From positions 131,658 through 195,657 of the forward strand of contig CAYVVD010000001.1 of the NCBI GenBank assembly GCA_964454975.1: DNA of 64,000 nt, read 5' to 3'. The position numbers and the translations under genes were made by a program. Every line of letters begins with the position of its first letter. Position 1 is the first letter of the stretch. A model generated the notes under the pieces. It was not told where the DNA came from. It worked only from the letters and a program-made list of their open reading frames with translations, and searched no databases. This DNA comes from an uncultured Hyphomicrobiales bacterium. Lineage in GTDB: Bacteria > Bacteroidota > Ignavibacteria > Kapaibacteriales > UBA2268. Shown piece after piece: positions 17,786 through 35,518 of the stretch.

Positions 17786-18685
17786 ATGCAAATAAATATA
17801 GAGAAAACCTCAGGCTTTTGCTGGGGTGTGGTAAGGACTGTTGAAATTGCCGAAGAAACTCTTGCTGAAAATACCGGCAGCAAAGTGTATGTTCTGGGGC
17901 ATATCATTCACAACCCACGTGAAATCGAGCGGCTTGAACGAGCCGGGCTCAGGACTGTTACTCACGAAGGAATTAAAGACCTGGCCGGGCAAAATGCCAA
18001 GGTTATCATTCGCGCTCATGGTGAACCACCTTCTACTTATGAAATGGCAAAAGAGCTTGGTATCGAAATAATTGATGCCACATGTCCGCTGGTTACAGGC
18101 CTTCAGAAAAAAGTTAAAAATTTTCATAAGAAAGGATACCAGGTGGTAATTTACGGGAAACCGCAGCATCCGGAGATTATTGGACTGAGGGGAGTAATTG
18201 ATGATGACTGCATAGTCATCCAGACTGTTGAAGAAGCTATTACTAAAATAGATTTCAACCGTAAAACAGTACTTCTCTCCCAAACAACAAAGGATAAAAA
18301 AACTTTCTACGATATAAAGGAAGCTATTGAAAGCCGTGTAAGCCTGTTGATAGAGGGCGGAGAGATTAAGGAAAAGTTTGAATCGCGTGATACACTTTGC
18401 AAAGAAGTATGGGGTAGGGAAGATGAACTAATAAACTTTGCAAAAAGTAATCAGATAATAGTCTTCGTTGCCGGAAGGAAATCTTCTAATGGATTGAGCC
18501 TCTACAACTTGTGCAAGCGTTACAATGAACGGACATATTTCATCGAAGACCTGAGTGAAATAGAAAATGATTGGTTCGCAAATGTAGAATCTGTAGGGAT
18601 ATCAGGTGCAACAAGCACACCACGCTGGTATCTTGAAAAAGTCAGAGATGAAATAGACAAGAGGACAGCCCTGGTTGAAGCTTAA
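17786..18685 (+). CDS. ispH: 4-hydroxy-3-methylbut-2-enyl diphosphate reductase
   Basis: IspH/LytB full-length similarity. The three conserved Cys are present (GFCWGV; ATCPLV; TLCKEV). Confidence 0.9.
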   Translation: MQINIEKTSGFCWGVVRTVEIAEETLAENTGSKVYVLGHIIHNPREIERLERAGLRTVTHEGIKDLAGQNAKVIIRAHGEPPSTYEMAKELGIEIIDATCPLVTGLQKKVKNFHKKGYQVVIYGKPQHPEIIGLRGVIDDDCIVIQTVEEAITKIDFNRKTVLLSQTTKDKKTFYDIKEAIESRVSLLIEGGEIKEKFESRDTLCKEVWGREDELINFAKSNQIIVFVAGRKSSNGLSLYNLCKRYNERTYFIEDLSEIENDWFANVESVGISGATSTPRWYLEKVRDEIDKRTALVEA

Positions 18686-18760
18686 ATTTGAATCTATTAT
18701 CAATTTTGAAAAAAACTAAGCTTTTGTCTTATAAAAAACAGGTTCACAAATTCCTAACAT

Positions 18761-19297
18761 CTATACTATTCTGTCCGGATTATCCTTAATGAACTCTTTC
18801 CAGCTTGATTTTTTTCCTTTCTGAGACAAACGTGATGAAAATTTGTGGCAAAGAGCAATAGCAATTGCATCGCTGAGGTCACTCTCCTTTTCCGTAAAGT
18901 CGAGACTGAGCAGGTTTTTCACCATGTATCGTACCTGCTCCTTTGAGGCATTCCCATTTCCGGTAACTGCTTTTTTTATTTCGCGAGGGGAATATTCAAA
19001 AACAGGAATATTATTGATTACTGCGGGTAAAATTGCGGCTGCCCTTGCGTGAGATAATTTTGCCAGCGATTGGGCATTTTTTGAATAAAAAACTGATTCT
19101 ATCGATAATGCTTCAGGTTGATATATTTTGATTATTTCCTCGATTTCCCTGAAAACAAGCCCCAGCCTTTGAGTAAATTCTTTTTCAGAAGCAGCTCTTA
19201 TTACACCGTAAGTTACGGGAAGTAGCTTTCCTGAATCGCCTTTTACTATCCCATAGCCGCAAAACCTTGAGCCGGGGTCTATTCCTAAAACTCTCAT
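18761..19297 (-). CDS. ruvC: crossover junction endodeoxyribonuclease RuvC
   Basis: MRVLGIDPGSR..GYG motif and RNase H-like fold. Confidence 0.9.
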   Translation of the reverse strand: MRVLGIDPGSRFCGYGIVKGDSGKLLPVTYGVIRAASEKEFTQRLGLVFREIEEIIKIYQPEALSIESVFYSKNAQSLAKLSHARAAAILPAVINNIPVFEYSPREIKKAVTGNGNASKEQVRYMVKNLLSLDFTEKESDLSDAIAIALCHKFSSRLSQKGKKSSWKEFIKDNPDRIV

Positions 19298-19342
19298 TTA
19301 AGGTAGAGAGAAATATGTATTGGAATTGGATTATCTGGTAAA

Positions 19343-20095
19343 TTATTCTCCAACCTGTTCCATTATTTCATCATCAATTTCAACATTGGAGAATAAGTTC
19401 TGTACGTCATCATGGTCTTCGAATGTTTCGATGAAGCGAATCACTTTTTTAGCAGCTTCGGGCGAATCAATATTCACTATATTTTGCGGCACATATTCCA
19501 ACTTGCTTTCCTCGATTTCAAATCCATTTTCTTCGATATATTTTAAACAGTTGCCAAATTCTTCCATAGGAGTAATAATCCTTGATGACTCATCATTATA
19601 TTCAAGGTCTTCAGCTCCTGATTCCAGGACAACTTCAAGCAGTTCTTCTTCGGACTTGTCGCTAGATTTAATAGTAATTACACCCTTACGTTCGAAGTTC
19701 CAAGCCACAGAATTAGTTTCACCAAGGTTACCTCCGAGCTTGCCGAACAAGCTTCGAATTTCGGCAACAGTCCTGTTTTTATTGTCGGTAACTGTTTCGA
19801 GAATTACGGCGACTCCATTGGGAGCATATCCCTCATAAGTGACTTCCTCGTAATTAACTCCTTCAATTTCTCCTGTGCCTTTTTTAATTGCACGTGTGAT
19901 ATTGTCAGACGGCATATTTACGCCCCGGGCATTCATCACTGCAAGCCTTAACCTGGGATTTGAATCAGGATCGCCACCACCTTCGCGGGAAGCAATGGTT
20001 ATTTCTTTTGCCAACCTCGTAAACATCTTGCCTCTCTTAGCATCCTGGCGTCCTTTGCGATGCTTAATATTTGCCCATTTACTGTGTCCGGACAT
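19343..20095 (-). CDS. YebC/PmpR family DNA-binding transcriptional regulator
   Basis: MSGHSKWANIKHRKG...KRGK..F..L..EI hallmark. Confidence 0.9.
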   Translation of the reverse strand: MSGHSKWANIKHRKGRQDAKRGKMFTRLAKEITIASREGGGDPDSNPRLRLAVMNARGVNMPSDNITRAIKKGTGEIEGVNYEEVTYEGYAPNGVAVILETVTDNKNRTVAEIRSLFGKLGGNLGETNSVAWNFERKGVITIKSSDKSEEELLEVVLESGAEDLEYNDESSRIITPMEEFGNCLKYIEENGFEIEESKLEYVPQNIVNIDSPEAAKKVIRFIETFEDHDDVQNLFSNVEIDDEIMEQVGE

Positions 20096-20172
20096 ACCAA
20101 TTCTTCTGTTTAATTTCTAAAATATTATTACGAACTAATTAAGCAATATATGAATTTTCTAAAAAATTGCAT

Positions 20173-23100
20173 TCAATCTAATTCATCATATTGGATATAT
20201 AGTCCTTCCGCCTTTAAATGCTGTATCAATTCCCTGAATATTCTGTTTTTTGACAATATACCCGAATTCCCGAGTATTATCAATTGCTCCCTTGCACGTG
20301 TAAGCGATACATTCAGTTTCCTGTCAATCTCCACTCCTTCAATGGTTATAGCTGATGAAATTTTGGTTAGGTCATATTCCCTGTTTACCGCAAAAGAAAT
20401 CAAAATAATATTACGTTGGCTTCCCTGGTAGCGCTCAACGGTATCAGCATTCACATATTTATATACTTCATCATCAATTAAACTGTTTATTAACGCACAT
20501 TGTGCACGGAAAGGAGATATAATTCCAACAGTTTCGCCTGTTAAAGCACCTTTTAGAGCTGTGTTGATTTTATTAATTATCGAAAGAGCTGCTTTAGCTT
20601 CACTGTGGTTTATAAATATTTCATCCTCAACAGGGCAATCAATAAATACCACCCTTTTGTTTTTATCTCCAAACAAAGATATTACATTATTCTCGGAGAT
20701 ATGTATGTCATCTTCTTCAATTGCTGATAAAGCACCTGAATAAAAGTGTTTAGATGGGAATGCAGCAATTTCCTTGTGCATCCTTCCCTGCTCTTCTAAT
20801 GTGGTAAAAGCATTGTCCCATTCGTATAACTTTGCATGTTCGATTAGTCTTTCAAAGAGCGAACTCCCAAGATTTGTTAAACCTATTGACTTTAACATCT
20901 CAGATTCTACTTCAAGGAAATCCTGGTTCTGGCTTACGATAGCGGGTAACTGGAAATGGTCTCCAATCAGGATAAATTTGTTAACCCTGCTAAGTATTCC
21001 AACCAGGTATGGCTCAAGAATTTGAGATGCTTCGTCAACAATAGCCATATCAAATTCCTTTAAGGAGAATATCTCAGGAGTTTTCAAGGCTGTTGCAACT
21101 GTACATGCTATTATCCTGCAGTTGCCTATTCTGTTCCCAAGTTTTCGCAATCCAATTGATTCTGCGAGATAAGCGGGCATATTATCTTTGAATTCAGAAG
21201 ATTCTTTGTAGCCAAGCCTTATGAAATCAATCTCAGCGCTATTGAGCGCCGAACAGAGTTCATCCACGGCCCGGTTTGTATATGCCATGACAAGGATATT
21301 GCCTGTTTTTTCGAATAAATATTCGCTAACAATGGTTTTAAAAACAAAGGATGTTTTGCCGGTTCCGGGCGGCCCCTGTATTAGATAGTAGTCTTTCGCT
21401 GCTAAGGCGTATTCTACAGCTTCATTTTGTAAATCAAAAAGTTCTTCATTATAATATGGGCCAACAATATCGAATTTGGGTTTTCTTCGGCTTAATAGTA
21501 ACTCTCTTTTCCCTTTAGAACTTGTCATAAATTCGAAAAGCGATGCAAAAAGGGTTTTACTGGTGCTATCGGATGAATCGGGTTCGAGTATCCAACTCTT
21601 GTGTTTTTCTAAGGCAGAAATTTTGAAAGACTTGTTCCTTAGGCTTATTAACACATAGTGGTTGCGGATTTCTTTTATTGAGCACTTTATCAATTCGCCA
21701 AAGTTTTCCAAATCCGATGGATATAGGATTGCAATATCACCCTTCCTGAATTTTGAACTGCTTAGTCTGGTTTCAGACTCTAACCGCAAATGGAAATTTT
21801 GAGTATCCGACTCGGTAAAATTTATAATTAAATTTGTTAGAACAGAATATTTCTTTCTTTTAGAGCCGATGCTTCCTCTCCATAGAGCAGAATAACCCAT
21901 ATTATTCAGCCCGTTCCCGGTTTTTTGTGAAAATAATTCACGCTGAATAAAAGTGACAAAGGTATTGAAATATTCTCTTTCAATATCATCAAGGGAATTG
22001 TAGATTGTCTCAAACTCACTGATATTACCATTCATATACGAAGGCCGGGCGCCAAAGCCACCTAATGAAAACGATTTGAGTACATCAGTTTCTCCCTCTG
22101 CAATCTTGTGTGCAATAGAGACAATCCAGTTTCGCAGCTCTAATGACTCTTTCTTGTTTTGGACAATGTTCGGAACATTTCTTAAAGGGTGTTCCTCAGC
22201 TCCGGAATATAGAATTGAAGAGCTGCCAGTCCTTCCGGGATATGCTGAATCTAAAAGCAAATTATAACAACTAACCTGCGAGAGGTGGTTTGGCCAGACA
22301 CCTGTGAGAATTCGCAGGTCATTCCCGCTTTCATAAGTAATATCCGGGCTTGGCGCTTTACCGGATTTAAGCTCAATAATGTCTTTTCTCCTGGCATCCT
22401 TGAATTCGAGAAGCGCATCCAGGCGCCCCTGTATCCCATAATCGGGTGATAGGAATGCCGGCTCAGCGGATACTGATTCATACTCAAGTAATTGAACGCT
22501 GTTTTGCAGATTATTGAATTGCCAATACAACTTGCTTCTTAGAAGTTCACCGATTTCAGGCTCGGAGAATAATAGGGCAATTATTTGCAATGGTCTCTTT
22601 TTAGAGGAAAATTCGAGAACATTATCAAAATTGTAATTCTTGTTTATAATTAATTCATCAAAGAATTCGTTGATTAGATTACCCATCACAAGGGGCAATT
22701 TAATGTCGGTTGAAATGAACAATTTCAGAAAATAGGCGAGGGGATTGTAGCCTTTCCCTGTGAAACATTCAGAAATATCAGTTACATCTATTAAATAGTC
22801 AGGTTCCAGTACAAACAGGGATTCATTCTTTGCCTTGTAATTTTCATTATCTACTATGTCAACATTGAAGATATTTAATTTACATCCTTTCCAGACCTGA
22901 CTTAGTATTTCACTTTGCCCACCATTAAGAGAAATTTCAATGTTACCAAGTTCATCGCTCGCACATTTCAATGTTCCACCGCTAACTTCGGAGGATTTCT
23001 TCCCAAATACTGTAAGTCCTTTTAAATAATTCGTTTTGTCATCAGCAAAATTCTCATCCTCACGGAAAGTGTATTCGAAATTAAGGTAAGGTTCGAGGAA

Positions 23101-23457
23101 ACTATCCAACTCGCCATCTGAGAGTTTTTTCAGGCAACGGGTAATCACATGGGTTGCAAATTTCAGCTCATCCCTGTTTACTGATTTCCCTTGTTCTTTG
23201 CTTACTTTATATGCAAAACGCCTGAAACTTGTTGTCTTTTTTGCTAATTGAGGTGAGAATGAATAAAGGTTGAAAATGTAAGCAGAAACTGCAAAAAAAT
23301 TACTAAAAAATTGATTTGAGGCTTTGCTTGCCTCGCTGAATATCTCTTCAACAAGTTCATAAATGCCGAGTAATTTAGTTTTTTCAGTCTCTTTATTTAA
23401 TAGTATTTTTTCAGTGCTGCGTGTATAATGATCTAACTGTGATTTGGTGAGCGGCAT
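20173..23457 (-). CDS. Dna2-like nuclease-helicase: PD-(D/E)XK (RecB/Cas4-family) nuclease domain fused to a Dna2/Upf1-like SF1 helicase
   Basis: Nuclease motifs D (EPDYLIDVTD / GRLDALLEF), ExK (IIELKSGK) and QxxxY (QVSCY) at roughly residues 230-420. Helicase motifs I GPPGTGKT, II IVDEASQ, III LIGDHFQLP, and V/VI (VERYQGSQRNIILISF; NVSLTRAREQL) at roughly residues 700-1090. Confidence 0.7.
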   Translation of the reverse strand: MPLTKSQLDHYTRSTEKILLNKETEKTKLLGIYELVEEIFSEASKASNQFFSNFFAVSAYIFNLYSFSPQLAKKTTSFRRFAYKVSKEQGKSVNRDELKFATHVITRCLKKLSDGELDSFLEPYLNFEYTFREDENFADDKTNYLKGLTVFGKKSSEVSGGTLKCASDELGNIEISLNGGQSEILSQVWKGCKLNIFNVDIVDNENYKAKNESLFVLEPDYLIDVTDISECFTGKGYNPLAYFLKLFISTDIKLPLVMGNLINEFFDELIINKNYNFDNVLEFSSKKRPLQIIALLFSEPEIGELLRSKLYWQFNNLQNSVQLLEYESVSAEPAFLSPDYGIQGRLDALLEFKDARRKDIIELKSGKAPSPDITYESGNDLRILTGVWPNHLSQVSCYNLLLDSAYPGRTGSSSILYSGAEEHPLRNVPNIVQNKKESLELRNWIVSIAHKIAEGETDVLKSFSLGGFGARPSYMNGNISEFETIYNSLDDIEREYFNTFVTFIQRELFSQKTGNGLNNMGYSALWRGSIGSKRKKYSVLTNLIINFTESDTQNFHLRLESETRLSSSKFRKGDIAILYPSDLENFGELIKCSIKEIRNHYVLISLRNKSFKISALEKHKSWILEPDSSDSTSKTLFASLFEFMTSSKGKRELLLSRRKPKFDIVGPYYNEELFDLQNEAVEYALAAKDYYLIQGPPGTGKTSFVFKTIVSEYLFEKTGNILVMAYTNRAVDELCSALNSAEIDFIRLGYKESSEFKDNMPAYLAESIGLRKLGNRIGNCRIIACTVATALKTPEIFSLKEFDMAIVDEASQILEPYLVGILSRVNKFILIGDHFQLPAIVSQNQDFLEVESEMLKSIGLTNLGSSLFERLIEHAKLYEWDNAFTTLEEQGRMHKEIAAFPSKHFYSGALSAIEEDDIHISENNVISLFGDKNKRVVFIDCPVEDEIFINHSEAKAALSIINKINTALKGALTGETVGIISPFRAQCALINSLIDDEVYKYVNADTVERYQGSQRNIILISFAVNREYDLTKISSAITIEGVEIDRKLNVSLTRAREQLIILGNSGILSKNRIFRELIQHLKAEGLYIQYDELD

Positions 23458-23478
23458 ACCCCTGAAAAACTCCCGGTT

Positions 23479-25179
23479 TTAATTTTCTGGTTTTATATCT
23501 TTAATCGAAATCTGTGGTGAACGTGAGCCGTTAAAATCGTTGGATTCGAGTGTATAAAGGAGAGAGAATTTCTTGCCGTTTGTGCAGTATTTATATTTGT
23601 TTGCGAGGTTATATCCAATTGCATCAATTACAAAATTCGACTGGAAAGCCCTGAATTTCAGGCTGTTGTTACCTACTATTTTTACTCCGTTAGCTGAAGT
23701 AACCCCCTGGGATAGAAACACCGGCTTATTATTGCTGAAACCGTGGGGAGCAAATTTGTTCAGGAAGGAAAGGAATTGTGGTGACAACTCATTAAATTTC
23801 ATTTCTGTATCAATAAGTATTTCAGGAACCATCATTTCACGGTCAATCTTAGTCTGTGCAATAGAGTCAAAAATATCCCTGAATTCAGGTATATTTTCTT
23901 CATTAAGTGAAAGCCCTGCGGCGTGTTTATGCCCGCCAAATTCATTGAGCAGATGACTGCATTTTTTTAAGGCAGAATGAATGTCAAATTCATTGATGCT
24001 TCTTGCTGAGCCTTTTGCCTGGCCGTCAATTGTAGTCATCAGCACGGTAGGTACATTAAACCTGTCCACAAGCCTCGAGGCAACAATACCAATTACACCG
24101 GCATGCCAGTGGGGTTGATGAAGTACAAGGGAACGGCGTTTTTCTTCGATAATCAAGCGCTCGGCAAGAGGTATAGATTCTTCAAATGTCTGTTGGTCAA
24201 ACACCCTGCGTTTGCGGTTCTCATCTTCGAGCTGCTGTGCTATTCTAAAGGCTGCAATTTCATCCTTTTGAATCATCATCTCTATAGAACGCATCGCATT
24301 GCCCATCCTGCCTGCAGCGTTAATGAGCGGCGCTAAGGCGTAAACTATATTAGAAGCAGTAATCTGCCCCAATTTTAGATTTGTGCAAGCAACAAGTCCT
24401 TTAAATCCCGGCCTTGGTTTTTTATTCAGGAGGTGAAGCCCGTAATAAACAAGAGTTCTGTTTTCGGCGACTAACGGAACCATATCCGCTGCTGAAGCGA
24501 TAGCAACATAGTCAAGATAATCAAGTGCTTTGTCAGGGATATTCATCCTTTCGGCAATCCCCTGGATAAATTTGAATGCAACTCCACATGCGGCTAAATG
24601 CTTAAACGGGTATTCGCACCCTGGTTGCAGTGGGTCCAGAATAGCATAAACATCGGGGATTTTCTCACCGGGTTCGTGGTGGTCGCAGATAATTACATCA
24701 AGATCAAGCCCTTTGGAATATTCAAGTGGCTCGAATGATGTAATTCCAACGTCAACTGTAATAACCAGGGTAACACCGGAGGATTTAGCAAGGTCAAGGC
24801 TCCTGTTGGACAGACCATAACCTTCATGGAAGCGGTCAGGTATATAGTATTCTACCCTCGCTCCAATATCGCGAAGAAATTGTATTAGGATAGCTGTGCT
24901 AGACGTACCGTCAACATCATAATCGCCGTGGATCCAGATTTTTTCCCCATCTCTGATTGCTTTCATCACCCTCAAGACGGCCTTCTCCATATCCTTCATC
25001 AGAAATGGGTCGTTAAGGTCGTCCATTGAAGGGTGGAAAAACTTCTCAGCCTCTTCGGGTGTACGCACTCCACGCGCTGCCAGAACGTTTACTAACGTTC
25101 TGGGTATTTTTAAATGTGTCGTAAGTTCTTGAACAGTACCATCATCAGCCCTCGGTCGAAAAGTCCACCGATACTTCAA
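23479..25179 (-). CDS. recJ: single-stranded-DNA-specific exonuclease RecJ
   Basis: DHH motifs (IHGDYDVDG; ITVDVGI; ICDHH), DHHA1 domain (GGHKHAAG) and OB-fold tail. Confidence 0.85.
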   Translation of the reverse strand: MKYRWTFRPRADDGTVQELTTHLKIPRTLVNVLAARGVRTPEEAEKFFHPSMDDLNDPFLMKDMEKAVLRVMKAIRDGEKIWIHGDYDVDGTSSTAILIQFLRDIGARVEYYIPDRFHEGYGLSNRSLDLAKSSGVTLVITVDVGITSFEPLEYSKGLDLDVIICDHHEPGEKIPDVYAILDPLQPGCEYPFKHLAACGVAFKFIQGIAERMNIPDKALDYLDYVAIASAADMVPLVAENRTLVYYGLHLLNKKPRPGFKGLVACTNLKLGQITASNIVYALAPLINAAGRMGNAMRSIEMMIQKDEIAAFRIAQQLEDENRKRRVFDQQTFEESIPLAERLIIEEKRRSLVLHQPHWHAGVIGIVASRLVDRFNVPTVLMTTIDGQAKGSARSINEFDIHSALKKCSHLLNEFGGHKHAAGLSLNEENIPEFRDIFDSIAQTKIDREMMVPEILIDTEMKFNELSPQFLSFLNKFAPHGFSNNKPVFLSQGVTSANGVKIVGNNSLKFRAFQSNFVIDAIGYNLANKYKYCTNGKKFSLLYTLESNDFNGSRSPQISIKDIKPEN

Positions 25180-25360
25180 CGTACAAAACCATATTAATTA
25201 TATATATCATTAATGCAAATTTACGAAATAAGCAAGTATGTTCAAAGCGATAGTGTGTAGGAAATTTCACACTTTTTTATTTTTTGTTAAGGAAGGAATA
25301 ATAAATAATTTTGCCTTATTATTATTAACTAGTGGAACACTTCAGAATGGCCGCTAAATA

Positions 25361-26368
25361 ATGGCAAAAAAGGACAAATTTAATTTCAAACGGGAACCTA
25401 TCCGGAAAATGATTAATGACCAGGTTCTAATAAAACCGGATGGCAAATTACCTGATGAAGCCGAGCGTGGACGAATCTACCTTACAATTGGGAGAGTCCA
25501 TCACCTTTTTAACGATGCCAATCCAGGTGAATCCTTCGAGTGTGTTATTTCCGGTACTTTAATCACTCCAAATAAAAGCAAGACTCTTGCATGCGTTGGC
25601 GACTATGCCTGGTACACGCGCGAAGGCAAAAACAATGGTAAAATTGTTAAAGTCGAACAACGCCAGACTTATATTGGCAGGAGGATGGTTGCATTGGGAG
25701 AGAGCGACCATATTATTGCCAGCAATCTTGATATTTTGCTCGTTTTCATGTCTGCCGCTGAACCATTTTACAACAGGAGACTAATAGACCGCTATCTCGT
25801 TTCGGCGGAGCTCGGTGCACTTGAGCCTGTAATTTGCATAAACAAAATGGACCTTATGCCCCATGAATTTATCAGGGAAGACCTGACTGCTTATGAAAAG
25901 CTTGGGGTGAAAGTTTACTATTTCAGCGCACTACGTGATGAGAATACAGAAGAATTAATTGAATACCTCAAAGGTAAAGAAGCAATAATGTCCGGGCCGT
26001 CAGGTACAGGGAAATCGACATTCATGAACCTTGTTATGGGGGATAAAATTCAGCATATAGCCAATGTTTCACTCAGAACCAGCAAAGGTAAGCATACAAC
26101 AACATTTACACAGATGTTTAACGTCGATGGCGGAGGCAAGCTTGTGGATTCCCCGGGGATACGTGAATTTGGACTGATTGACATTAATAAAAATGAGCTC
26201 TCAACATACTTTCCCGAGTTTATAGAGTATTCAGATACATGCAAGTTTATGCCTTGCTCTCATACTCATGAACCAGGGTGTGCTGTTAAAGAAGCAGTTG
26301 AATCCGGGGAAATTGATCCACAGCGATACGACAGCTACATTATGATGCTCGGGACTTTGGATGATTAA
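25361..26368 (+). CDS. rsgA: ribosome small-subunit-dependent GTPase A
   Basis: N-terminal OB fold, circularly permuted GTPase (NKMDL; GPSGTGKST; DSPG) and a C-terminal Zn-finger (CKF.PCSHTHEPGC). Confidence 0.85.
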   Translation: MAKKDKFNFKREPIRKMINDQVLIKPDGKLPDEAERGRIYLTIGRVHHLFNDANPGESFECVISGTLITPNKSKTLACVGDYAWYTREGKNNGKIVKVEQRQTYIGRRMVALGESDHIIASNLDILLVFMSAAEPFYNRRLIDRYLVSAELGALEPVICINKMDLMPHEFIREDLTAYEKLGVKVYYFSALRDENTEELIEYLKGKEAIMSGPSGTGKSTFMNLVMGDKIQHIANVSLRTSKGKHTTTFTQMFNVDGGGKLVDSPGIREFGLIDINKNELSTYFPEFIEYSDTCKFMPCSHTHEPGCAVKEAVESGEIDPQRYDSYIMMLGTLDD

Positions 26369-26503: not shown

Positions 26504-26788
26504 AAATCCATACCCTTAATCTTTATTAATAAAACATTGTACAAATTTGTTTTCTATCTGAAATCCAATTCAAGTAACATTTAAGTAACGATTTTTTGTA
26601 CGAGAAATTATCTTTGAATAATTATTTCTATAGCTATTTTAGTCACAATGATTCTTGTAATGTACAAGTTTAAATCCTTTCACACCGACAACTGCTTTTT
26701 TTAGCCTGAATTTGTAATCCATTTCTGTATGTATTTTTCACTTTTTTTTGTATTATGATTTTTTTCAGGCACTTACCTGGGTTGCCCT

Positions 26789-29700
26789 TATGAAAATCTT
26801 AGAATTTACAAAAGAGCTTAAATTCGATTGTCTATTCGAAAGCAGTCTCAACTCTATCTTATTTTTAGATGCCTATGGAAAAATTGTTGATTTAAACTCC
26901 CGGGCTGAGAAATTGTTTGGAATTAGAAGAGAGATTTGCACCGGTAAATATTACCCAAATTACCTTCCGGGTGTTGAATCCAAAACAATAGATTTAATTA
27001 ATAAGGTTGCTGAAGATGGTCCGGAAATAATAGAACACTCCTCAGGTGAAAATGGCAGCACCAGGTTCTACAGGACTGAAATAAGACCCATGCTGGACAG
27101 CAATGCTGAGTTTATTGGCGCTATTTCAATCACAAAAGATGAAACTTCAAGGCTAAGAAAACAGGAAGAAATAAAGAAGCAGAAAGATTTTACAGAATCA
27201 TTATTCCAAAACATGATATCCGGTTTTGCACTCCATGAGATTATTTCGGATGAGGAGGGCAAGCCCGTTGACTATATCTTTCTTGATATTAACAAAGCCT
27301 TTGAAGATATTACAGGACTAATAAGCGCAGATATTAAAGGTAAAAGGGTTACTGATATACTTCCGGGAACCGAAAATGACCCTGCTGATTGGATCGGGCG
27401 GTATGGAAAAATTGCCATGACCGGAAGCCGGGAAACCTTCGAAAGCTATAGCGTTAATCTGAATAAATGGTTTGTGGTGAGTGCTTATTCTCCTGAAAAA
27501 GGAAAATTTGCCACTATATTTCAGGACATTACCAAAAGGGTTGAAGCTGAAAACAAATTAAAGCGAAACGAAGAAAAATTAAGGCTTATCATAGAAAACA
27601 GTACCAATTTGTTTTACTCTCATACGGCAGAGCATGAGTTAACCTATCTGAGTCCACAGTGTATTGATTATCTCGACTGTGAACCTGAAAAGGCGATGAA
27701 ACGCTGGACGGAGTTCGCCACAGACAACCCTGTAAACAAAATTGGATTTGAAAATACTGTCCGCGCAATTGAAACCGGCGAAAGGCAGACTCCTTATGAT
27801 CTGGAATTAAATAGTGCAAAAGGCAGGAAATTCTGGGTTGAAGTAAGGGAAACCCCGGTAGTTAAGCATAACAAGACTGTTGCTATAGTAGGCTCGCTTC
27901 ATGATATTACCGAGCGAAAGAGTGCGGAGACAGCTCTAAAGCAATCTGAAGCACTTTTTAGAAAAGTTCTTGAAAATATTAGGCTTATTGGGCTGATGTT
28001 GGATGAAAACGGCAAAATTACATTTTGCAACAAATTCCTGCTTAACTTAACAGGCCATAAGTATGATGAAGTTATTGGTGAGGACTTGTTCGAAAAATTT
28101 TTACCTTTAGAAATTCAACAAGAACACAAAGAAATGTTCTTCAGTACAATCAATGATATTGAGTTGCATGTAGTACACGAAAATGAAATAACTACAAAGG
28201 ATGGTGAAAGAAAGCTAATCAAATGGTTTAATACAGAAATGCGGGATGAATCAGGAAAACTCTTTGGCATTACAAGCATAGGAGAGGATGTTACTGCAAA
28301 GAGGAAAAGCCAGGAAAGATTCAGGCTAATTACCGAAATCACAACAGATATTACTTATGAATGGGATTTAAAAACTGACAACATTTCCTGGTTTGGCGAT
28401 ATTGACGCCGCACTTGGATATTCAAAAGGAACTATTAAGCCAAACCTGGAAAGTTGGTATGATCTTATCCATCCTGATGAATTAGAATACCTGAAAAATA
28501 TATTGAACGAATTTTACAACAAAAGCAATGAGCTTTTTATCGAGTACAGGATAAGGGATAGCAAAGGCAGATGGAGGCATTGGCAGGAAAAAGGCCTGGT
28601 AATCTTGGATGAAAACGGCAAACCCGGCAAAGTACTCGGTGCCTGCCTCGATATTACTGAAAAAAGGCGAGCTGAATTAGAGCTTATCAATAGAGAAAGG
28701 CAATTCCGCTTTCTTGCAGAAAACGCATTCTCGCTAATCAGATCTTATGAGTTAGATGAAATCCTGGGATTTGCAACTAATAAATTGTTTGAAATTACTA
28801 ACGGGGAAGCATCCGTATTTGTGTGTAAATTTAATGATAATACAAACAGATGGAGTATTTTCGATATTAAATTTTCAGACGATATGGATATCCAAAGCTC
28901 TCTAAAGTTTATTGAACATGTAAAATCTATTGAAATAAGAAATAATAGGTGGATTAATGAGAAATTACTAAGTGGAAGACTTGTAGAATTTGAAGAAGAT
29001 TTAACAAAGTTAATTAAGATTTTGAAACTCCCTGAAGAACTTATTTCATCTCTCAATAATACAGATATTGAAAAAATACTCTGTTTATCCTTTACTTATA
29101 ACAATAATTTCTATGGCACAGGCTGGCTTGTTTATTCGCAAAATGTAGAAAATATAAACAAACCGTTACTTGAAGCATTTTCAGTCCAGATTTCTACTGC
29201 TCTTAACAGGGTGCACAACGAAAAACAAAGACTCGATGCAGAGACTACATTCCGCAGCCTGTTTGAATCCAGCAATGACGCAATTTTAGTGATAGATGCC
29301 GAAACATCTCTAATAGTAGATGTTAATAAAGCTGCGCTCGATTTATACGGATTCAGGCGCTCTGAGCTATTAGGGCTTAATCCCGTGATGCTGTCAGCGG
29401 AACCGGGCTCTTTCTTTTCGATTTTGGACAGCACTGATAAAATCCCACTTAACAAAGTTCGGCAGAGTATTCATATAAAAAAGAATGGCTCGAGATTTCA
29501 CGTGGAATTCAGATTCTCATTATATGAATCTTCCGGAAAGAAATATCTTGCTGTACTTGTAAGGGATATAAGTGAAAGAGAAAGATATGAAAGAGAACTA
29601 AGCCAGGCTCATAAGCAAATACAGGCTTTTGCAGAACACCTCCAGAATGCAAGAGAAGAAGACCGTAAGCTGATTTCGCAGGATTTGCATGATGAGTTAG

Positions 29701-30272
29701 GAAGTTTTCTTGCCGGTATCAACTTCAGCCTTGGATATATAATTAAAGAGGCAAAGAAAAAGATTAAAAATAATAAAATCATTGAAGAGATTGATGCTAT
29801 GAGAAAATCTGTTAAAACAGGCATGATCAAGCTGAACGACATGATTGCAAAGATCAGGCCTAATGTTCTTGAGGGACTATCTATTTCAGAGGCTGTCGAA
29901 TGGCTGGTTGAAAATTTCCGAGAGAAATCCAATGTCTCTTGCAACCTGGTTACAAATGTGGATTATATTAATTTAAGTGATAAACAAATGACTGCAATTT
30001 TCAGGATACTGCAAGAGTCCCTTACAAATGTGATTAAACACGCTAAAGCAAAAAATGTGTTGGTAAAGCTTATTCAAAAGGATGATTTCCTTATTCTGAC
30101 TGTTAAGGATAACGGGCGTGGATTTGACTCGGACAATGCTCGCAAATTCTCTTTCGGCTTAGTCGGTATAAAAGAAAGAGCGGCTTCCTGTAACGGAAAC
30201 ATCAGTATTAAATCAAAACGCGGGAAGGGTACCGAAGTAACTCTCCAGGTACCGATTGAAGAAGGTGATTAA
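26789..30272 (+). CDS. multi-PAS sensor histidine kinase with a HisKA_3-type dimerisation domain (NarX/DegS-like core)
   Basis: At least four PAS/PAC-like modules and a GAF-like region. H-box DLHDELGSFLAG is followed by HATPase_c (N, G1 DNGRGF, G2 GLVGIKER). No TM helices are seen. The ORF-track start at 26748 is TTG; the first ATG is at 26789. Confidence 0.8.
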
Positions 30273-31807
30273 CAAATATCAAGCTCGTTGATTAATGTAT
30301 GGACACCATTCTTGCGGGTTTTATCAAACAGGTTTAGCTCAAGTGCAAATATGGAACCGACTCCAACCGAACTCCGGACTGTGATATTTCCATTCATCAA
30401 TTCCATGTATTTCTTTGTTATTGTAAGACCGAGGCCTGCCCCTTCGTAGTGCCGTGCTATACCGTCGCTTCCCTGCACAAACTCTTCGAATATTTCCAGC
30501 AGTTTTTCAACAGGTATTCCGATTCCCGAGTCTTTTATCTCTACAAGGTATTTAGACTGCTCTTTGTGGTTTTTAATCCTGGTTCTGATGCTTATCTCAC
30601 CCTTATCTGTAAACTTCACTGCATTTTGAATTAAATTGGAGAAACACTTTTTGAATAGCCTTTCATCACCCAATGCAGACTTCCCTTCACATTCATTTAT
30701 TAACTTAAGCTCCAGGCCTTTATTTTCAACTTCGTATTTATAGAATTCCAATACATTATTAATTAGCTCAACCGGGTCAATTGGGCTGAGTTTTAATTTA
30801 AAAATATCAAATTCCATGTCGGATAATTCAAGAATTTTGTTTAACGTATCCATCAAACGTTTGCCGCTATTATAAATCATACTTGCCATTTCTCTGATTT
30901 CATTGCTTTTTGAATCGCTTTCTATAAGCTGTGCAAAACCAAGGATACCAACCATTGGCGTCCTTAGTTCATGGCTCATATTTGAAAAGAAGTTGCTTTT
31001 TATTCTGTTCAGGCGTTCTCTTTCTTCAAGTGTTTTTCTCTGAATTTCCAAAGTTTTAATCCTCTCGGTAATATCCATTACGATACCGGAAATAATTTCA
31101 TCATTGCCAAGTGTGATATTCGCCAGTAGACTAAGCACATCGCCGGACTTTGTTACGCAATTAATCTCTAAATTTTCGACTATTTTTTCTTCAAATATCC
31201 GTTTTAATACCTGTTCCCTTTCTATTGGGTTGGAATATGCATCAGCTATACTGAAATTCTTTGCGTCTTCCTTATTGTACCCGAACATCTTAAGCAATGC
31301 ATTATTGGCAAATATCAAATCTCCATTATAATTTGTTTTATAAACACCAATTTTTGCATTGTTTACCAGGTTTCTGAAATTATGCTCACTTTCAGAAAGC
31401 TTCTCTATAGCGTTGTCTTTTTCGAGCCTGTCAATATAGGCTTTGTATTCTCTTTGGATTACAAGAGGAAGTTTAAGGATGTTGCTTTTCAGAATTATGT
31501 CGTCAGCGCCGGCTTTCATTATCTCTACAGTCTTTTCATTGCCCAATGTACCCGTGAGTATAACAAAAGGTTTTTCCGGGCATGCTGATTTTAAATCATT
31601 TAGTGCGTCGAGGCCTGTATAACCCTGGAGCTTGTAATTTGAAAGAACCAGATCAAAGCTGTCCGTGTTCCGGAGATAATGCTTATACTCCTGCCCGGTT
31701 TTTGCCCAGAAAAGCTCGTAAATTGCATCCTCTTTTTTCAGCAGGGCTTCAACAAGCAAGTAGTCAGCCCTGCTGTCTTCGAGAAAAATTATTTTTATAT
31801 TGTACAT
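30269..31807 (-). CDS. hybrid receiver-PAS-histidine kinase; its receiver has Asn at the phospho-acceptor position
   Basis: N-terminal REC (FDLVLSNYKLQGYTG), PAS, HisKA (NMSHELRTPMVGILGF), HATPase_c (GAGLGLTI). Confidence 0.8.
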   Translation of the reverse strand: MYNIKIIFLEDSRADYLLVEALLKKEDAIYELFWAKTGQEYKHYLRNTDSFDLVLSNYKLQGYTGLDALNDLKSACPEKPFVILTGTLGNEKTVEIMKAGADDIILKSNILKLPLVIQREYKAYIDRLEKDNAIEKLSESEHNFRNLVNNAKIGVYKTNYNGDLIFANNALLKMFGYNKEDAKNFSIADAYSNPIEREQVLKRIFEEKIVENLEINCVTKSGDVLSLLANITLGNDEIISGIVMDITERIKTLEIQRKTLEERERLNRIKSNFFSNMSHELRTPMVGILGFAQLIESDSKSNEIREMASMIYNSGKRLMDTLNKILELSDMEFDIFKLKLSPIDPVELINNVLEFYKYEVENKGLELKLINECEGKSALGDERLFKKCFSNLIQNAVKFTDKGEISIRTRIKNHKEQSKYLVEIKDSGIGIPVEKLLEIFEEFVQGSDGIARHYEGAGLGLTITKKYMELMNGNITVRSSVGVGSIFALELNLFDKTRKNGVHTLINELDIC

Positions 31808-31955
31808 TTATTTGCGTTTATAATTATTCAAATCTTTCAAATGCAATTTAGTCCAGGCAGGGATATTAAAAAGTAGGTAAAGTTATGATTAGTATGTAGA
31901 GAAAATTACTACAAGTAATGGGCAGATAATCTATTGATTTTAGTTGATTTATATC

Positions 31956-32591
31956 TCAAATAGCAATGAGTTTATTGCGGAGTGCATAAAAAACAATCTC
32001 GAAGTTGGAATGTAAGTTCATTTTTTCGAAAACACGTTGTTTGTATGTATTGACAGTACTCTGACTGATTGACAAATCTTCGGAAATTTCCCTGATTGTT
32101 TTGCCCGAGGCGATCATCAGGAAAATCTGGTATTCACGTTCAGATAATAATTCATGTTGTTTTTTCCGAGAATCTGCCCCGATTTTATCGGCGATGATTG
32201 CTGCGAATCCTGGAGTGATATATTTTTTCCCCGATGCTACCTGGTAAATGGCAAATATTACATCTTCCGGGTTGGATTCCTTTGTAATATAGCCCCAGGC
32301 ACCGAGTTTGAAAGCACGCTCAGCGTATATACGTTCCGGGTGCATCGTCAGAAAAACTATTTTACAATTCAATCCGGCTGCTTTAATGTCTTTAAGCAAC
32401 TCAAGTCCATCTCTGTCAGGAAGGCTTATATCAAGAAGTGCTACATCGCAAGCGCTTTTTTTTACCCCGTCAAATACTTCGCCTCCGCTCCCTGCCTCGC
32501 CAACTACCTCTATGTCAAGCTCTGATTCTATTACCTTACGGAGCCCTTCGCGGACAAAGAAATGATCATCAGCTATAAATACTTTAATCAT
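31956..32591 (-). CDS. NarL/LuxR-family response regulator
   Basis: REC (IADDH; DVALLDISLPDRDG) plus a C-terminal LuxR HTH (LSEREYQIFLMIASGKTIREISEDLSISQSTVNTYKQRVFEK). It is the likely partner of the HisKA_3 kinase. Confidence 0.85.
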   Translation of the reverse strand: MIKVFIADDHFFVREGLRKVIESELDIEVVGEAGSGGEVFDGVKKSACDVALLDISLPDRDGLELLKDIKAAGLNCKIVFLTMHPERIYAERAFKLGAWGYITKESNPEDVIFAIYQVASGKKYITPGFAAIIADKIGADSRKKQHELLSEREYQIFLMIASGKTIREISEDLSISQSTVNTYKQRVFEKMNLHSNFEIVFYALRNKLIAI

Positions 32592-32835
32592 ATCCCGTCT
32601 CCGAAATCTTGTATAAGAACATACACAATATATTCATGTTTCACAAGAGGAAAATGAATAATGATTAATATTAAAGAAAAATCAAACATATTGATCGTGG
32701 CATTTTTTATGACATAATTATCATAAGATGTGCTATTTATATATAATTTCAAATACAATAAATTCCAATTACTAATGTAGCATAATACATGCAATAGAGT
32801 TAATAACTACTTCATTATAAAGACAGGGTCATACA

Positions 32836-35085
32836 ATGCAAAAAGTTGAATTCGAGCTTGATGAACAAGAATTGAACAATTGGCTTGAAAATCAATATAT
32901 TGATTCTAAAAGGAGTAAAAATTCAATTCTCGGCGACCTGCTCAAAGCCAGGGATATCATAAAAAAACAACAGGAAGATCTGCAAAAAACAAATAAAGAC
33001 CTTCTTGCATTGACTGTTGAACTGGAAAAGGAACTTGAGAAAAGGAAAAGTACTGAAAAGAAATTATTTGCGCACAATGAGCGCCTTGAGTTGCTGGTTG
33101 ATAAAAGGACAGCTTCATTAAAACAGTTAAACAGTGCTCTGCTTAGGCAAATTGAAGATAAAAGAGAAATTGAAAAAGACTTAATTGAAAACGAGCGCAA
33201 ATTCCGTACACTCTATGATAATTCACCTGATATGTATGTATCTGTTTCTCCCGATGACGCTTCTATTAAGCTATGCAACAAGACACTACTGAAATACACA
33301 GGCTACGAAGCTAAAGAGCTTATCGGGGAATCGGTTTTTTTTATGTATCATGAGTCATGCCTGGACGATGCAAAGGAAGCTTTCAATGAGTTTATTACTA
33401 CAGGAAAAGTAAGAGACAAAGAGCTTAAGCTAAAAAGAAAGGATGGAAGTATTATTGATGTCAGCCTGAATGTTGACTCCGTAAAAGACGAAAACGGGAA
33501 GATACTCTATTCCATGTCTTCCTGGAGGGATATTACAGAGAGATTAAAATCCGAAAAAATAATCAGGGACAATGAGAAAATATTCAAAGCAATTTTTAAA
33601 AATTCACCTTTAGGAATGGCGATTTTGGATACGTCCGGGAAACTATTGTTTGTTAATCCTGCTCTTGTAAATTTTACAGGTTACAGCGATGAGGAACTGA
33701 AATCAATGATATTTACCGAATTTACTCATCCTGAAGACATTAATAAAGATTTGGATAAGTATTTAGAATTGGTTCAAGGTAAAATAAAAAGCTACAAGAT
33801 GGAAAAAAGGTACATTAATAAGAATGGTGAGATTGTCTGGGGGAATTTGAACGTAACCGGTATAAGGGATGATAACGATGATCTGGAGTTTGTCCTGGGG
33901 ATGGCAGAGGATATTACTGAAGTAAAAGAACTTGAAGAAAGCAGAGAATCACTTCTGCATGACTTAAGGGAAAGAAACAAAGAACTGAATTGTTTGTACC
34001 AACTATCAAGGTTGACTTCAGATAGTAAGTTAGGGATTATAGAGGTTCTTAAGAAAACAACTGAAATTATTCCTCCGGCATGGAAATACCCGGAAATAAC
34101 AGAAGTAAAAATCACTTTTGAAGATGTTGAATATAAAACACCGGGATTCCGGGAAAGCAAATGGAAACTTGACAAATCATTTGCAGTAGGCTCAGAAAAC
34201 GAGATTAACATCAAGGTTGTGTACCTAAAAGAAATGCCGGCAATGTATTATGGCCCATTTTTGAAAGAAGAACAAGAACTGATATTGGCACTTGCGAGAA
34301 ACCTGTCACATTATATAGAGAGGAAAAAATACGAGGATAAAGTTCTCAGGCAAAAAGAAATACTCGAGGATTTGGTAGCGAAGCGCACATCTGAATTAAT
34401 TAGAGCAAACAAAGACCTCGAAGAATTCAGCTATTCGGTATCTCATGACCTTCGTGCCCCATTGCGTCACCTAAGCGCTTTTTCGCAAATGCTTGTAGAA
34501 AAGATCTCGGGAATTGCAGACAAGAAAGCACTCCACTATCTGGATATTATTAATAAATCTGCAACAAAGATGGACAGCTTGATTACTGCTATTCTGAATT
34601 TCTCTCGAACAGGCAGAGTAACAATAAATAAATCCCGAATAGACATGAATTCATTAATTAATGAAATAATCCGTGACTTCCAGTTAGACCTAACCGAAAG
34701 GAAAGTAAACTGGATAATCGGTGAACTGCCTGAAATTAATGGAGATACATTGCTGATAAAGCAAGCATTTGTTAACGTAATATCAAACGCAATTAAATAT
34801 ACTTCACTTGAAGAAGTTGCCGAAATAACAATTATAGGAAACTCAAACGGAGATAAAGCGACTATTTCAATTATTGACAATGGTGTAGGCTTTGCTTCCG
34901 AAAACGCAGACAATATTTTTGGAGTTTTTCAAAGGCTGCATGCAGAGGAAGAATTCAATGGGATTGGCATTGGCCTGGCCAATGTTAAGAAAATAATCAC
35001 CAGGCATGGTGGAGATATAACAGGCAAAGGCTCCCCGGGTGAGGGAGCAGAATTCACAATTACATTACCAAATGGAGAAGCTTGA
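32836..35085 (+). CDS. cytoplasmic coiled-coil/PAS sensor histidine kinase (phytochrome-type HisKA)
   Basis: N-terminal coiled coil, two PAS domains and a GAF-like region. HisKA SVSHDLRAPLRHL, HATPase_c (DNGVGF; GIGIGLANVKK). First gene of a six-gene overlapping operon. Confidence 0.8.
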   Translation: MQKVEFELDEQELNNWLENQYIDSKRSKNSILGDLLKARDIIKKQQEDLQKTNKDLLALTVELEKELEKRKSTEKKLFAHNERLELLVDKRTASLKQLNSALLRQIEDKREIEKDLIENERKFRTLYDNSPDMYVSVSPDDASIKLCNKTLLKYTGYEAKELIGESVFFMYHESCLDDAKEAFNEFITTGKVRDKELKLKRKDGSIIDVSLNVDSVKDENGKILYSMSSWRDITERLKSEKIIRDNEKIFKAIFKNSPLGMAILDTSGKLLFVNPALVNFTGYSDEELKSMIFTEFTHPEDINKDLDKYLELVQGKIKSYKMEKRYINKNGEIVWGNLNVTGIRDDNDDLEFVLGMAEDITEVKELEESRESLLHDLRERNKELNCLYQLSRLTSDSKLGIIEVLKKTTEIIPPAWKYPEITEVKITFEDVEYKTPGFRESKWKLDKSFAVGSENEINIKVVYLKEMPAMYYGPFLKEEQELILALARNLSHYIERKKYEDKVLRQKEILEDLVAKRTSELIRANKDLEEFSYSVSHDLRAPLRHLSAFSQMLVEKISGIADKKALHYLDIINKSATKMDSLITAILNFSRTGRVTINKSRIDMNSLINEIIRDFQLDLTERKVNWIIGELPEINGDTLLIKQAFVNVISNAIKYTSLEEVAEITIIGNSNGDKATISIIDNGVGFASENADNIFGVFQRLHAEEEFNGIGIGLANVKKIITRHGGDITGKGSPGEGAEFTITLPNGEA

Positions 35086-35516
35086 TGAAAGAAGATTCCT
35101 GCGTTTTGCTGGTGGATGACGATCCCGGCGATTTGGAACTGATTAAGGAGGTAATAATTGATTACTACCCGGGCGAGGATGTTTTGGCTTTCGAAGATCC
35201 CGAAGAAGCCTTCGAATACTTGCAAAACAAATGGCAAAGGAAAAACAAGAAATGGTTCCTGCTTTGTGATCTTAATATGCCGAAACTAAGCGGTGTGGAC
35301 TTAATCAAAAGACTTCGTAAGGAAGAAAAATTCAATGGAATACCTATTGTAGTGTTCAGTTCTTCGTTCGAAGAACAAGACAAAGAAGAATGCTATAATG
35401 CAGGGGCAAATTCCTATGTTGTAAAGCCCGGAATATTCCCCGATTTTAAAGAAAAGATAAAAAGTATTGGCCAATATTGGGGAGAAATTAACGAACCCCT
35501 TAAAACGGAGATATAG
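35082..35516 (+). CDS. single-domain response regulator (Rcp1-like receiver)
   Basis: REC motifs VLLVDDD; LCDLNMPKLSG; K in VVKP. 4-bp overlap with the upstream kinase. Confidence 0.8.
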   Translation: MMKEDSCVLLVDDDPGDLELIKEVIIDYYPGEDVLAFEDPEEAFEYLQNKWQRKNKKWFLLCDLNMPKLSGVDLIKRLRKEEKFNGIPIVVFSSSFEEQDKEECYNAGANSYVVKPGIFPDFKEKIKSIGQYWGEINEPLKTEI

Positions 35517-35518
35517 TA

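Follow-up and report, generated by a model that had tools for sequence, protein, structure and literature searches.

In this study, we examined a 64,000-nucleotide stretch of DNA from an uncultured bacterium deposited as Hyphomicrobiales and placed by GTDB in the Kapaibacteriales of Ignavibacteria (positions 131,658 to 195,657 of contig CAYVVD010000001.1, assembly GCA_964454975.1; hereafter, the whole stretch is the window). A single open reading frame (ORF) on its minus strand (20173..23457, ATG start, stop codon included) encodes a protein of 1094 amino acids, and its start codon is backed by homologs that align from query residues 1-11 onward. As judged from sequence and predicted structure, this protein very probably joins, in a single chain, a RecB-family nuclease and a superfamily 1B (SF1B) helicase in the order found in Dna2, with which it is collinear over its full length. 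It is not a plain Dna2 member, because the four-Cys iron-sulfur (Fe-S) cluster, a defining feature in Dna2, in the bacterial enzyme Bad and in AddB/Cas4, is missing here. Weighing sequence, model and analogy together, we lean toward an active Dna2-type enzyme that would process 5' strands alongside RecJ, the product of the gene directly upstream.

Domain order and active sites

Pfam places an Upf1-type SF1B helicase (AAA_11/AAA_12) at residues 675-1065 and the Dna2 family itself (PF08696) at residues 201-297, the latter with 26.9 bits against a cutoff of 22.4. When the single sequence was compared with the PDB by phmmer, mouse DNA2 came out as the best match (E = 1.3e-37, residues 637-1088), with Upf1 at about 1e-24, and the alignment to mouse DNA2 also holds a weak collinear stretch at the nuclease core. 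A phmmer search of the PDB with residues 140-520 of the single sequence found no match even at E ≤ 10; the Dna2 likeness of the nuclease region is thus visible to the family profile only. This profile (A1), built from 38 diverse members that are 31-41% identical to the window protein, aligns with mouse DNA2 at E = 2.8e-77 in one unbroken stretch, profile positions 161-1107 corresponding to chain residues 65-1043; the runner-up in the PDB, Sen1 (E = 1.9e-52), matches in the helicase only. When limited to the nuclease (residues 140-520), the profile retrieves mouse Dna2 as its best and sole significant match (E = 1.3e-4), followed below significance by mycobacterial AdnAB-type chains (E = 0.03-0.16). 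The predicted fold agrees. An AlphaFold2 model computed on the 38-member alignment (mean predicted local distance difference test score, pLDDT, 88.1; predicted template modelling score, pTM, 0.88) places three mouse Dna2 structures at the top of a Foldseek search of the PDB (5ean_A: E = 1.2e-47, template modelling scores 0.64/0.66, 1127 columns), and the next matches, Upf1 and Ighmbp2 at about 1e-28, cover the helicase half only. Sequence identity to mouse Dna2 in the Foldseek alignment is about 20%, yet at sequence level the likeness is far beyond chance, given at least 343 full-length homologs and catalytic residues that are invariant in all 38 profile members. An earlier note, made from the letters of the sequence without database searches, had proposed a complete RecB-family nuclease N-terminal to an SF1B helicase, the eukaryotic Dna2 order; the full-length profile and fold matches bear this out, and profile searches identify the catalytic domain as a nuclease rather than as some non-nuclease fold.

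Mouse Dna2 is laid out as a fold of the OB (oligonucleotide/oligosaccharide-binding) type, a nuclease of about 310 residues, a β-barrel held by a stalk, and then the helicase domains 1A and 2A; the stalk and β-barrel are an architecture common to Upf1-type helicases (PMC4716839). The same succession can be followed along the window protein, with all features on the minus strand. Residues 143-218 (22804..23031) form a putative OB-fold β-barrel, with five strands in both AlphaFold models, at the place of the Dna2 OB domain and collinear with mouse Dna2 residues ~61-130 in the profile alignments. Its Foldseek matches are weak (HIN, RPA, POT1 and LysRS, E = 3e-4 to 5e-2); a separate model of residues 1-222 matched OB-fold proteins exclusively, over about 100 columns, in a table that does not give residue ranges. 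Next comes the PD-(D/E)XK (RecB-family) nuclease domain with its N- and C-terminal helical extensions (residues 219-513; 21919..22803), supported by PF08696 and the nuclease-only profile, the C-terminal extension taking up residues ~430-513. The catalytic core, D347...E362-L-K364...Q394xxxY398, spans residues 347-398 (22264..22419). Two stalk helices and a β-barrel follow at residues 514-660 (21478..21918), where the model has strands at 540-626 between helices; in the profile alignment this region pairs with the barrel and stalk of mouse Dna2. The SF1B helicase of Upf1/Dna2 type, domains 1A and 2A, closes the chain (residues 661-1094; 20173..21477), as supported by Pfam AAA_11/AAA_12 and phmmer.

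The extreme N-terminus is a different matter. Residues 1-126 (23080..23457) are predicted to form a family-specific five-helix bundle (helices 5-20, 25-47, 54-64, 69-87 and 95-112, pLDDT mostly 85-98) that is not covered when the profile is aligned to mouse Dna2, the match opening at profile position 161; within the bundle, F51 is invariant and stands at the centre of a conserved motif. The N-terminal ~220 residues and the ~300 residues between nuclease and helicase had been described as free of recognisable motifs. These regions are now largely explained: only residues ~1-130 are family-specific, and the remainder holds the OB fold, the helical extension of the nuclease and the stalk with its barrel.

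The catalytic residues are uniformly retained. All the nuclease and helicase motifs quoted in the earlier note were found in the 1094-residue translation, those of the helicase being intact throughout: GPPGTGKT (695-702), DEAS (808-811), LIGDHFQLP (830-838), QGSQ (1011-1014) and TRAR (1053-1056). In the nuclease, all 38 members share E332, D347, E362, K364, Q394 and Y398; in the helicase, the same holds for G695-T702, D808/E809/Q812, G832/D833/Q836, Q1011/G1012 and R1054. The phmmer alignment pairs D347, E362, K364, Q394 and Y398 with mouse D278, E299, K301, Q314 and Y318, respectively, and D278A is the nuclease-dead mutant of mouse Dna2 (Zhou et al., PMC4716839). Because the catalytic residues are invariant and match those of mouse Dna2, both the nuclease and the helicase active sites look functional.

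Iron-sulfur ligands and comparison with known enzymes

In Dna2, AddB, Cas4 and Bad, four Cys residues hold a 4Fe-4S cluster, one located before the nuclease core and the others in a CX2CX5C motif after it (PMC7430649, PMC4716839). The cluster of Dna2 staples the N- and C-terminal extensions of the nuclease together and supports a crossover loop that closes the DNA tunnel (PMC4716839). A check for the four Dna2-type ligands came back negative for the window protein, which has just two Cys in residues 200-520 (C231 and C397) and no CX2CX5C. The 38-member alignment contains no conserved Cys column after the nuclease core, C231 and C397 being the only conserved Cys of the nuclease region, and a C-x2/3-C...C motif between ExK and Walker A is absent in 207 of the 209 full-length members with recognisable anchors. 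C231 (nt 22765-22767) is conserved in 35 of 38 members and, in both profile alignments, falls three residues before the N-terminal Fe-S ligand of mouse Dna2 (residue 137, counted along the aligned chain); C397 (nt 22267-22269), which forms part of the QxxxY motif, is kept by 23 of the 38. The two exceptions among the 209, P0020 and P0022, carry C-x3-C-x12-C in the C-terminal helical extension (window-equivalent residues ~481-505, nt ~21943-22017), together with the N-terminal Cys, in registers four residues apart. From the sequences, these motifs may be the remnant of a metal staple or a staple invented anew. The authors of the Bad study found bacterial DNA2-like proteins by a Cys-signature search (PMC7430649), which would have missed the present family, as its members lack the four-Cys signature.

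When set beside mouse Dna2 (PDB 5EAN/5EAW/5EAX), the window protein shares the order of OB fold, PD-(D/E)XK nuclease, stalk and barrel, and SF1B domains 1A/2A, as well as the catalytic D/E/K/Q/Y set and a similar spacing between the nuclease Asp and the Walker A Lys (354 residues here, D347 to K701). It departs from mouse Dna2 in the absent 4-Cys cluster, with C231 offset by three residues from the mouse ligand, in having the five-helix bundle in place of the short RPA-binding α1 helix, in the low overall identity, and in residing in a bacterial host without RPA. The closest characterised bacterial enzyme is of a similar build: Bad, from Geobacillus stearothermophilus, is likewise a single chain in which a RecB-family nuclease precedes an SF1B helicase, and has been shown to be an ssDNA-dependent ATPase, a 5'-3' translocase and helicase, and an ssDNA endonuclease with a preference for 5' flaps (PMC7430649). 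By analogy, Bad is the best biochemical proxy for the window protein. The two nevertheless differ in several respects. According to its published description, Bad has the four-Cys Fe-S cluster that the window family lacks; it displays a D150...K815 spacing of 665 residues with an extra large, conserved central domain, whereas the spacing here is 354 residues with the Dna2-type stalk and barrel only, and the distance from ExK to Walker A is 320-360 residues in 205 of 209 members. Thus, the domain set of the window protein is closer to that of eukaryotic Dna2 than Bad's is. Moreover, Bad is rare, sporadic and found beside a Type III-like methyltransferase, whereas the window family is large, spread over the Fibrobacteres-Chlorobi-Bacteroidetes (FCB) superphylum and surrounded by housekeeping genes.

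Other relatives share one half of the protein. AddB, Cas4 and AdnAB have the PD-(D/E)XK core with QxxxY, and AdnAB-type chains were next, without significance, in the nuclease-only search; yet none of the three gives a significant sequence match, the Fe-S Cys are absent here, and in AddB and AdnA/B the nuclease follows an SF1A-type helicase in the chain. Upf1, Ighmbp2 and Sen1/Senataxin share the helicase 1A/2A with stalk and β-barrel; unlike the window protein, they are without a nuclease, are mainly RNA helicases, and match the C-terminal ~55% of the protein only. MkoA and PLuB have the Upf1-like helicase core in common with it, but these systems and Nhi differ in that the nuclease half is unmatched and in that neither partner genes nor a defence context accompany the window family.

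Family distribution and gene neighbourhood

The exact sequence of the window protein had no record in an exact-sequence lookup, and its nearest homolog is merely 41% identical. The family is nonetheless extensive. A homolog database search returned at least 343 homologs, nearly all of about 1100 amino acids, and a query with the N-terminal 640 residues retrieved 1026, 813 and 479 clusters at E ≤ 1e-3, 1e-10 and 1e-30, respectively (50%-identity clusters among 1.84 billion representatives), the best 150 of which are mostly ~1100 amino acids long and collinear. When a single genome per species was scanned, a relative turned up in at least 572 species genomes. The best 80 loci of these were taken for neighbourhood analysis, in which ORFs were called and flanking proteins were clustered and searched with the neighbours of the window gene. 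They belong to Ignavibacteria, Kapabacteria, Chlorobiota (including Chloroherpeton), Cloacimonadales and many Bacteroidota (Saprospiraceae, Chitinophagales, Cytophagales, Dysgonomonas and Myroides), to which tblastn adds members in Bacteroides, Phocaeicola and Prevotella. The copy of Bacteroides finegoldii is 31% identical over residues 182-1078, keeps D/ExK/QxxxY, follows tatA-tatC and lies near dxs and murF. Its record is a 177-kb sequence titled 'plasmid 23' (L081, NZ_OY725925.1), with the core genes dxs, murF/alr, tatA and tatC beside the homolog WP_306561234.1, itself annotated only as 'AAA domain-containing protein'; this 'plasmid' is probably a chromosomal fragment in PLSDB.

In a neighbour-joining (NJ) tree of 79 members, the grouping broadly follows taxonomy. 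A few Ignavibacteria copies (L017; L021, a metagenome-assembled genome of Ignavibacterium album; L062) are instead placed in a second clade, where they mix with Chitinophaga and Cloacimonadales; they have no recJ neighbour, and paralogy, transfer or an NJ artefact could account for their position. The closest relatives of the window protein come from six records that are also titled 'uncultured Hyphomicrobiales bacterium' (L001-L004, L006 and L009); four of these carry a RecJ 63-67% identical to that of the window, and the six group with Ignavibacteria and Kapabacteria in the tree. Their taxonomic labels look wrong.

At the window locus, as the earlier note had it, the gene sits between ruvC-yebC and recJ; Pfam confirms RuvC, YebC and RecJ, all on the same (minus) strand. 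recJ (23479..25179; DHH, DHHA1 and RecJ_OB), the gene of a 5'-3' ssDNA exonuclease, is directly upstream, while yebC (19343..20095; TACO1/YebC family) and ruvC (18761..19297; Holliday-junction resolvase, Pfam RuvC E = 3.7e-49), which ends the co-directional run, lie downstream. Successive gaps in this run are 21, 77 and 45 bp, and a scan of 18400-25600 detected no minus-strand terminator-like site in them; beyond this absence the promoter and terminator scan is uninformative, with counts at or below shuffled expectation. The surroundings are those of an ordinary chromosome, with genes for DnaG, a sugar transferase, Cmk, IspH, RsgA, FlhA, ThrRS and RelA/SpoT and two tRNAs.

Three further features of the window were noted. 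A dense signalling run (26748-42379, 30269-31807 and 45874-47115) includes four large PAS histidine/hybrid kinases, along with one more response-regulator/HATPase_c protein and response regulators whose output domains are HDOD or HD. Adjoining a tRNA-Leu, a 326-amino acid ORF on the minus strand (42745-43725) has no Pfam match at E ≤ 1e-6. Flagellar genes are present in cultured Ignavibacteria, and FlhA is encoded here on the minus strand at 51442-53565 (FHIPEP, E = 2.6e-264), which indicates that the organism encodes a flagellar export apparatus and would agree with a host of Ignavibacteria type.

Across the 80 related loci, RecJ is the sole recurrent neighbour, encoded co-directionally at position -1 in 10 of them, all within the Ignavibacteria/Kapabacteria/Chlorobiota clade to which the window belongs. 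With the window included, 11 of the 16 assessable members of this clade have recJ directly upstream, from Chloroherpeton through Kapabacteria to Ignavibacteria, although the Dna2-like proteins are just ~35-40% identical. The distance from the recJ stop to the start of the Dna2-like gene is -17 to +39 nt in nine of the ten related loci and +21 in the window. This spacing suggests that the two genes are probably co-transcribed, and perhaps translationally coupled, in this lineage. The 135 immediate neighbours of the Dna2-like genes were scanned with Pfam and PADLOC, the RecJ proteins being set aside; 185 Pfam families were matched, none of them in more than four neighbours. Among the best 80 loci, those of Bacteroidota and Cloacimonadales have no repair gene beside the Dna2-like gene. 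In three loci, two labelled Saprospiraceae and one 'uncultured Bacteroidetes', regulators with WYL and WCX domains are encoded divergently and directly upstream of it (L016:607-1860, L018:6240-7238, L073:3692-4765), which may hint at nucleic-acid- or damage-responsive regulation.

The resemblance to Upf1-type helicases raises the question of whether the substrate could be RNA. The closest helicases after Dna2 are the RNA helicases Upf1, Ighmbp2 and Sen1, and two neighbours would fit a helicase-nuclease of RNA surveillance or decay: RsgA, encoded divergently upstream of recJ in the window and four other loci, and YebC, downstream in the window and in L003. RsgA, however, is encoded on the other strand, and its linkage is to recJ and not specifically to the Dna2-like gene; the conserved partner is a genuine RecJ that carries the RecJ_OB domain, and the best full-length matches in sequence and fold are to a DNA enzyme, Dna2. 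We therefore regard an Upf1-like role on RNA as the most improbable of the explanations considered.

A role in defence, as an anti-phage or anti-plasmid nuclease-helicase effector akin to Nhi, to Bad with its methyltransferase or to Mokosh/PLuB-type systems, draws on partial profile matches: MkoA of Mokosh with 212 bits at residues 780-1081 and NCBIfam PLuB_AAA (NF040671) with 251.5 bits at residues 533-1081. It could also draw on the WYL regulators upstream of the gene in the three Saprospiraceae/Bacteroidetes loci and on the Type III-like methyltransferase that adjoins Bad (PMC7430649). These matches, however, are confined to the helicase or to the barrel plus helicase, and PLuB_AAA scores far below its cutoff of 999, as does ProA (40 bits against 1500); membership in PLuB or Mokosh was rejected on these grounds. 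A literature search for 'PLuB' found nothing relevant. No match to a PADLOC model named Nhi was obtained at E ≤ 0.1, the presence of such a model in the library being unconfirmed. PADLOC revealed no defence enrichment in the 135 neighbours, where it matched only three WYL regulators and generic OmpA/MotB-type proteins; there is no methyltransferase among the 25 most frequent of the 185 Pfam families, nor beside the window gene. In tblastn searches no phage record held a family member, and the only three plasmid records matched, all from Bacteroidales, carry core genes or are chromosome-sized. The family further displays a uniform ~1100-residue architecture and a tree broadly consistent with taxonomy, and the window gene belongs to the core chromosome, near the genes for DnaG, Cmk, IspH, RsgA and ThrRS. 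A defence island is not supported, because the window is ordinary chromosome and the neighbours are housekeeping genes; the possibility that orthologs sit consistently in defence islands, raised in the earlier note, does not match what we see. Overall, a defence function appears very unlikely.

Proposed role and its implications

If the protein works as its relatives do, a mechanism can be sketched. A tunnel and the threading of DNA through it have been described for Dna2 (PMC4716839), and Bad is a 5'-3' translocase and ssDNA endonuclease that prefers 5' flaps (PMC7430649). If the analogy with these two enzymes, from mouse and Geobacillus, holds, the window protein would take up a free 5' ssDNA end through a tunnel in its nuclease domain and pass it on to the helicase; its SF1B motor would move 5'-to-3' along the threaded strand, and the nuclease would cut the tracked strand into pieces. 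The N- and C-terminal extensions of the nuclease would be held by protein packing instead of the 4Fe-4S 'iron staple'. In the cell, the enzyme and RecJ might jointly clear 5' strands or long 5' flaps at breaks, gaps, and stalled or reversed forks, in recombinational repair or fork processing, and this 5'-strand clearing would stand upstream of RuvC-type resolution. Threading, polarity, DNA substrate, cooperation with RecJ and the cellular role are all inferred in this scheme, and for the physiological role as such we would put the chances at about even. The proposed repair role rests on the recJ linkage within one deep clade and on the ruvC gene found in three genomes, including that of the window.

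Several points weigh against this scheme. Linkage to recJ was seen in none of the ~58 assessable loci outside the window's clade, and could be, in part, inherited gene order. ruvC is downstream in just two other loci (L003 and L012) and yebC in one (L003); as yebC and ruvC form an ancient pair by themselves, their presence at the window locus may be coincidental. DNA specificity is an assumption, since Upf1-type helicases can act on RNA, and the threading geometry may differ from that of Dna2, whose tunnel is closed with the help of the Fe-S cluster missing here. The family is known from sequences and models alone. In addition, the AddAB of Bacteroides fragilis is functional and required after DNA damage (PMC2887965); as the family is found in the same genus, it is not simply the missing double-strand-break resection machine, and an accessory route, rather than a replacement of AddAB, is the more likely function. 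Concerning gene order, the ruvC-yebC-X-recJ arrangement thus proves conserved on its recJ side and within the clade, but not elsewhere and hardly at all for ruvC and yebC. The suggestion in the earlier note that the placement of the gene argues for recombinational repair and end processing is weakened by the rarity of ruvC and yebC, yet with the recJ linkage it remains reasonable.

Alternatively, the enzyme might work in replication rather than recombination and, like eukaryotic Dna2, clear long 5' flaps or primers as Okazaki fragments mature, or serve in general lagging-strand housekeeping. The Dna2 architecture, OB fold included, would suit such a task, long-flap processing being a known role of Dna2, as would the 5'-flap preference of Bad (PMC7430649) and the core-gene-like distribution of the family among unrelated housekeeping genes in Bacteroidota. 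On the other hand, bacterial primers are normally handled by the Pol I 5'-nuclease/FEN and RNase H (PMC7430649), and no replication gene recurs as a neighbour, the only recurrent partner being recJ, with ruvC in the three genomes mentioned above. We thus consider a replicative role unlikely, although less so than one in defence, and 5'-strand processing alongside RecJ remains the explanation that we prefer. A broader proposal can be entertained only tentatively, being to our mind rather doubtful: that the family represents a housekeeping lineage of Dna2 in the FCB superphylum, passed on vertically, which retains the whole Dna2 architecture, dispensed with the Fe-S cluster and forms with RecJ a two-nuclease module for 5' resection at breaks, gaps or reversed forks.

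Dna2 has hitherto been treated as a eukaryotic and archaeal enzyme. Bad, its only characterised bacterial relative, was described as rare, sporadic and Fe-S-containing, and possibly as part of a restriction system. The family examined here differs from it in being large, widespread in one superphylum and placed among core genes, with the full Dna2 domain set in the absence of the Cys cluster. Automatic pipelines already label some members 'Dna2' (JGI), others being 'DNA2/NAM7 family helicase' or 'AAA domain-containing protein' (NCBI), so that the novelty lies in the variant features and the biology and not in the recognition of homology; no published account of a Bacteroidota/FCB Dna2-like family was found in the open-access literature. 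The family is large and uncharacterised, and reaches the Bacteroides of the human gut. If its activity is confirmed, it would offer a test set by nature of the need for the Fe-S 'staple' in a threading tunnel, would add a Dna2/RecJ-type 5'-strand route beside AddAB to models of recombination in Bacteroidota, Ignavibacteria and Chlorobi, and would provide tractable bacterial models, gut Bacteroides included, for a medically important enzyme. Should the proposal of a vertically inherited FCB lineage acting with RecJ prove true, these bacteria would possess a counterpart of the Dna2 pathway that Fe-S-based searches have missed, one possibly informative on the origin of eukaryotic Dna2.

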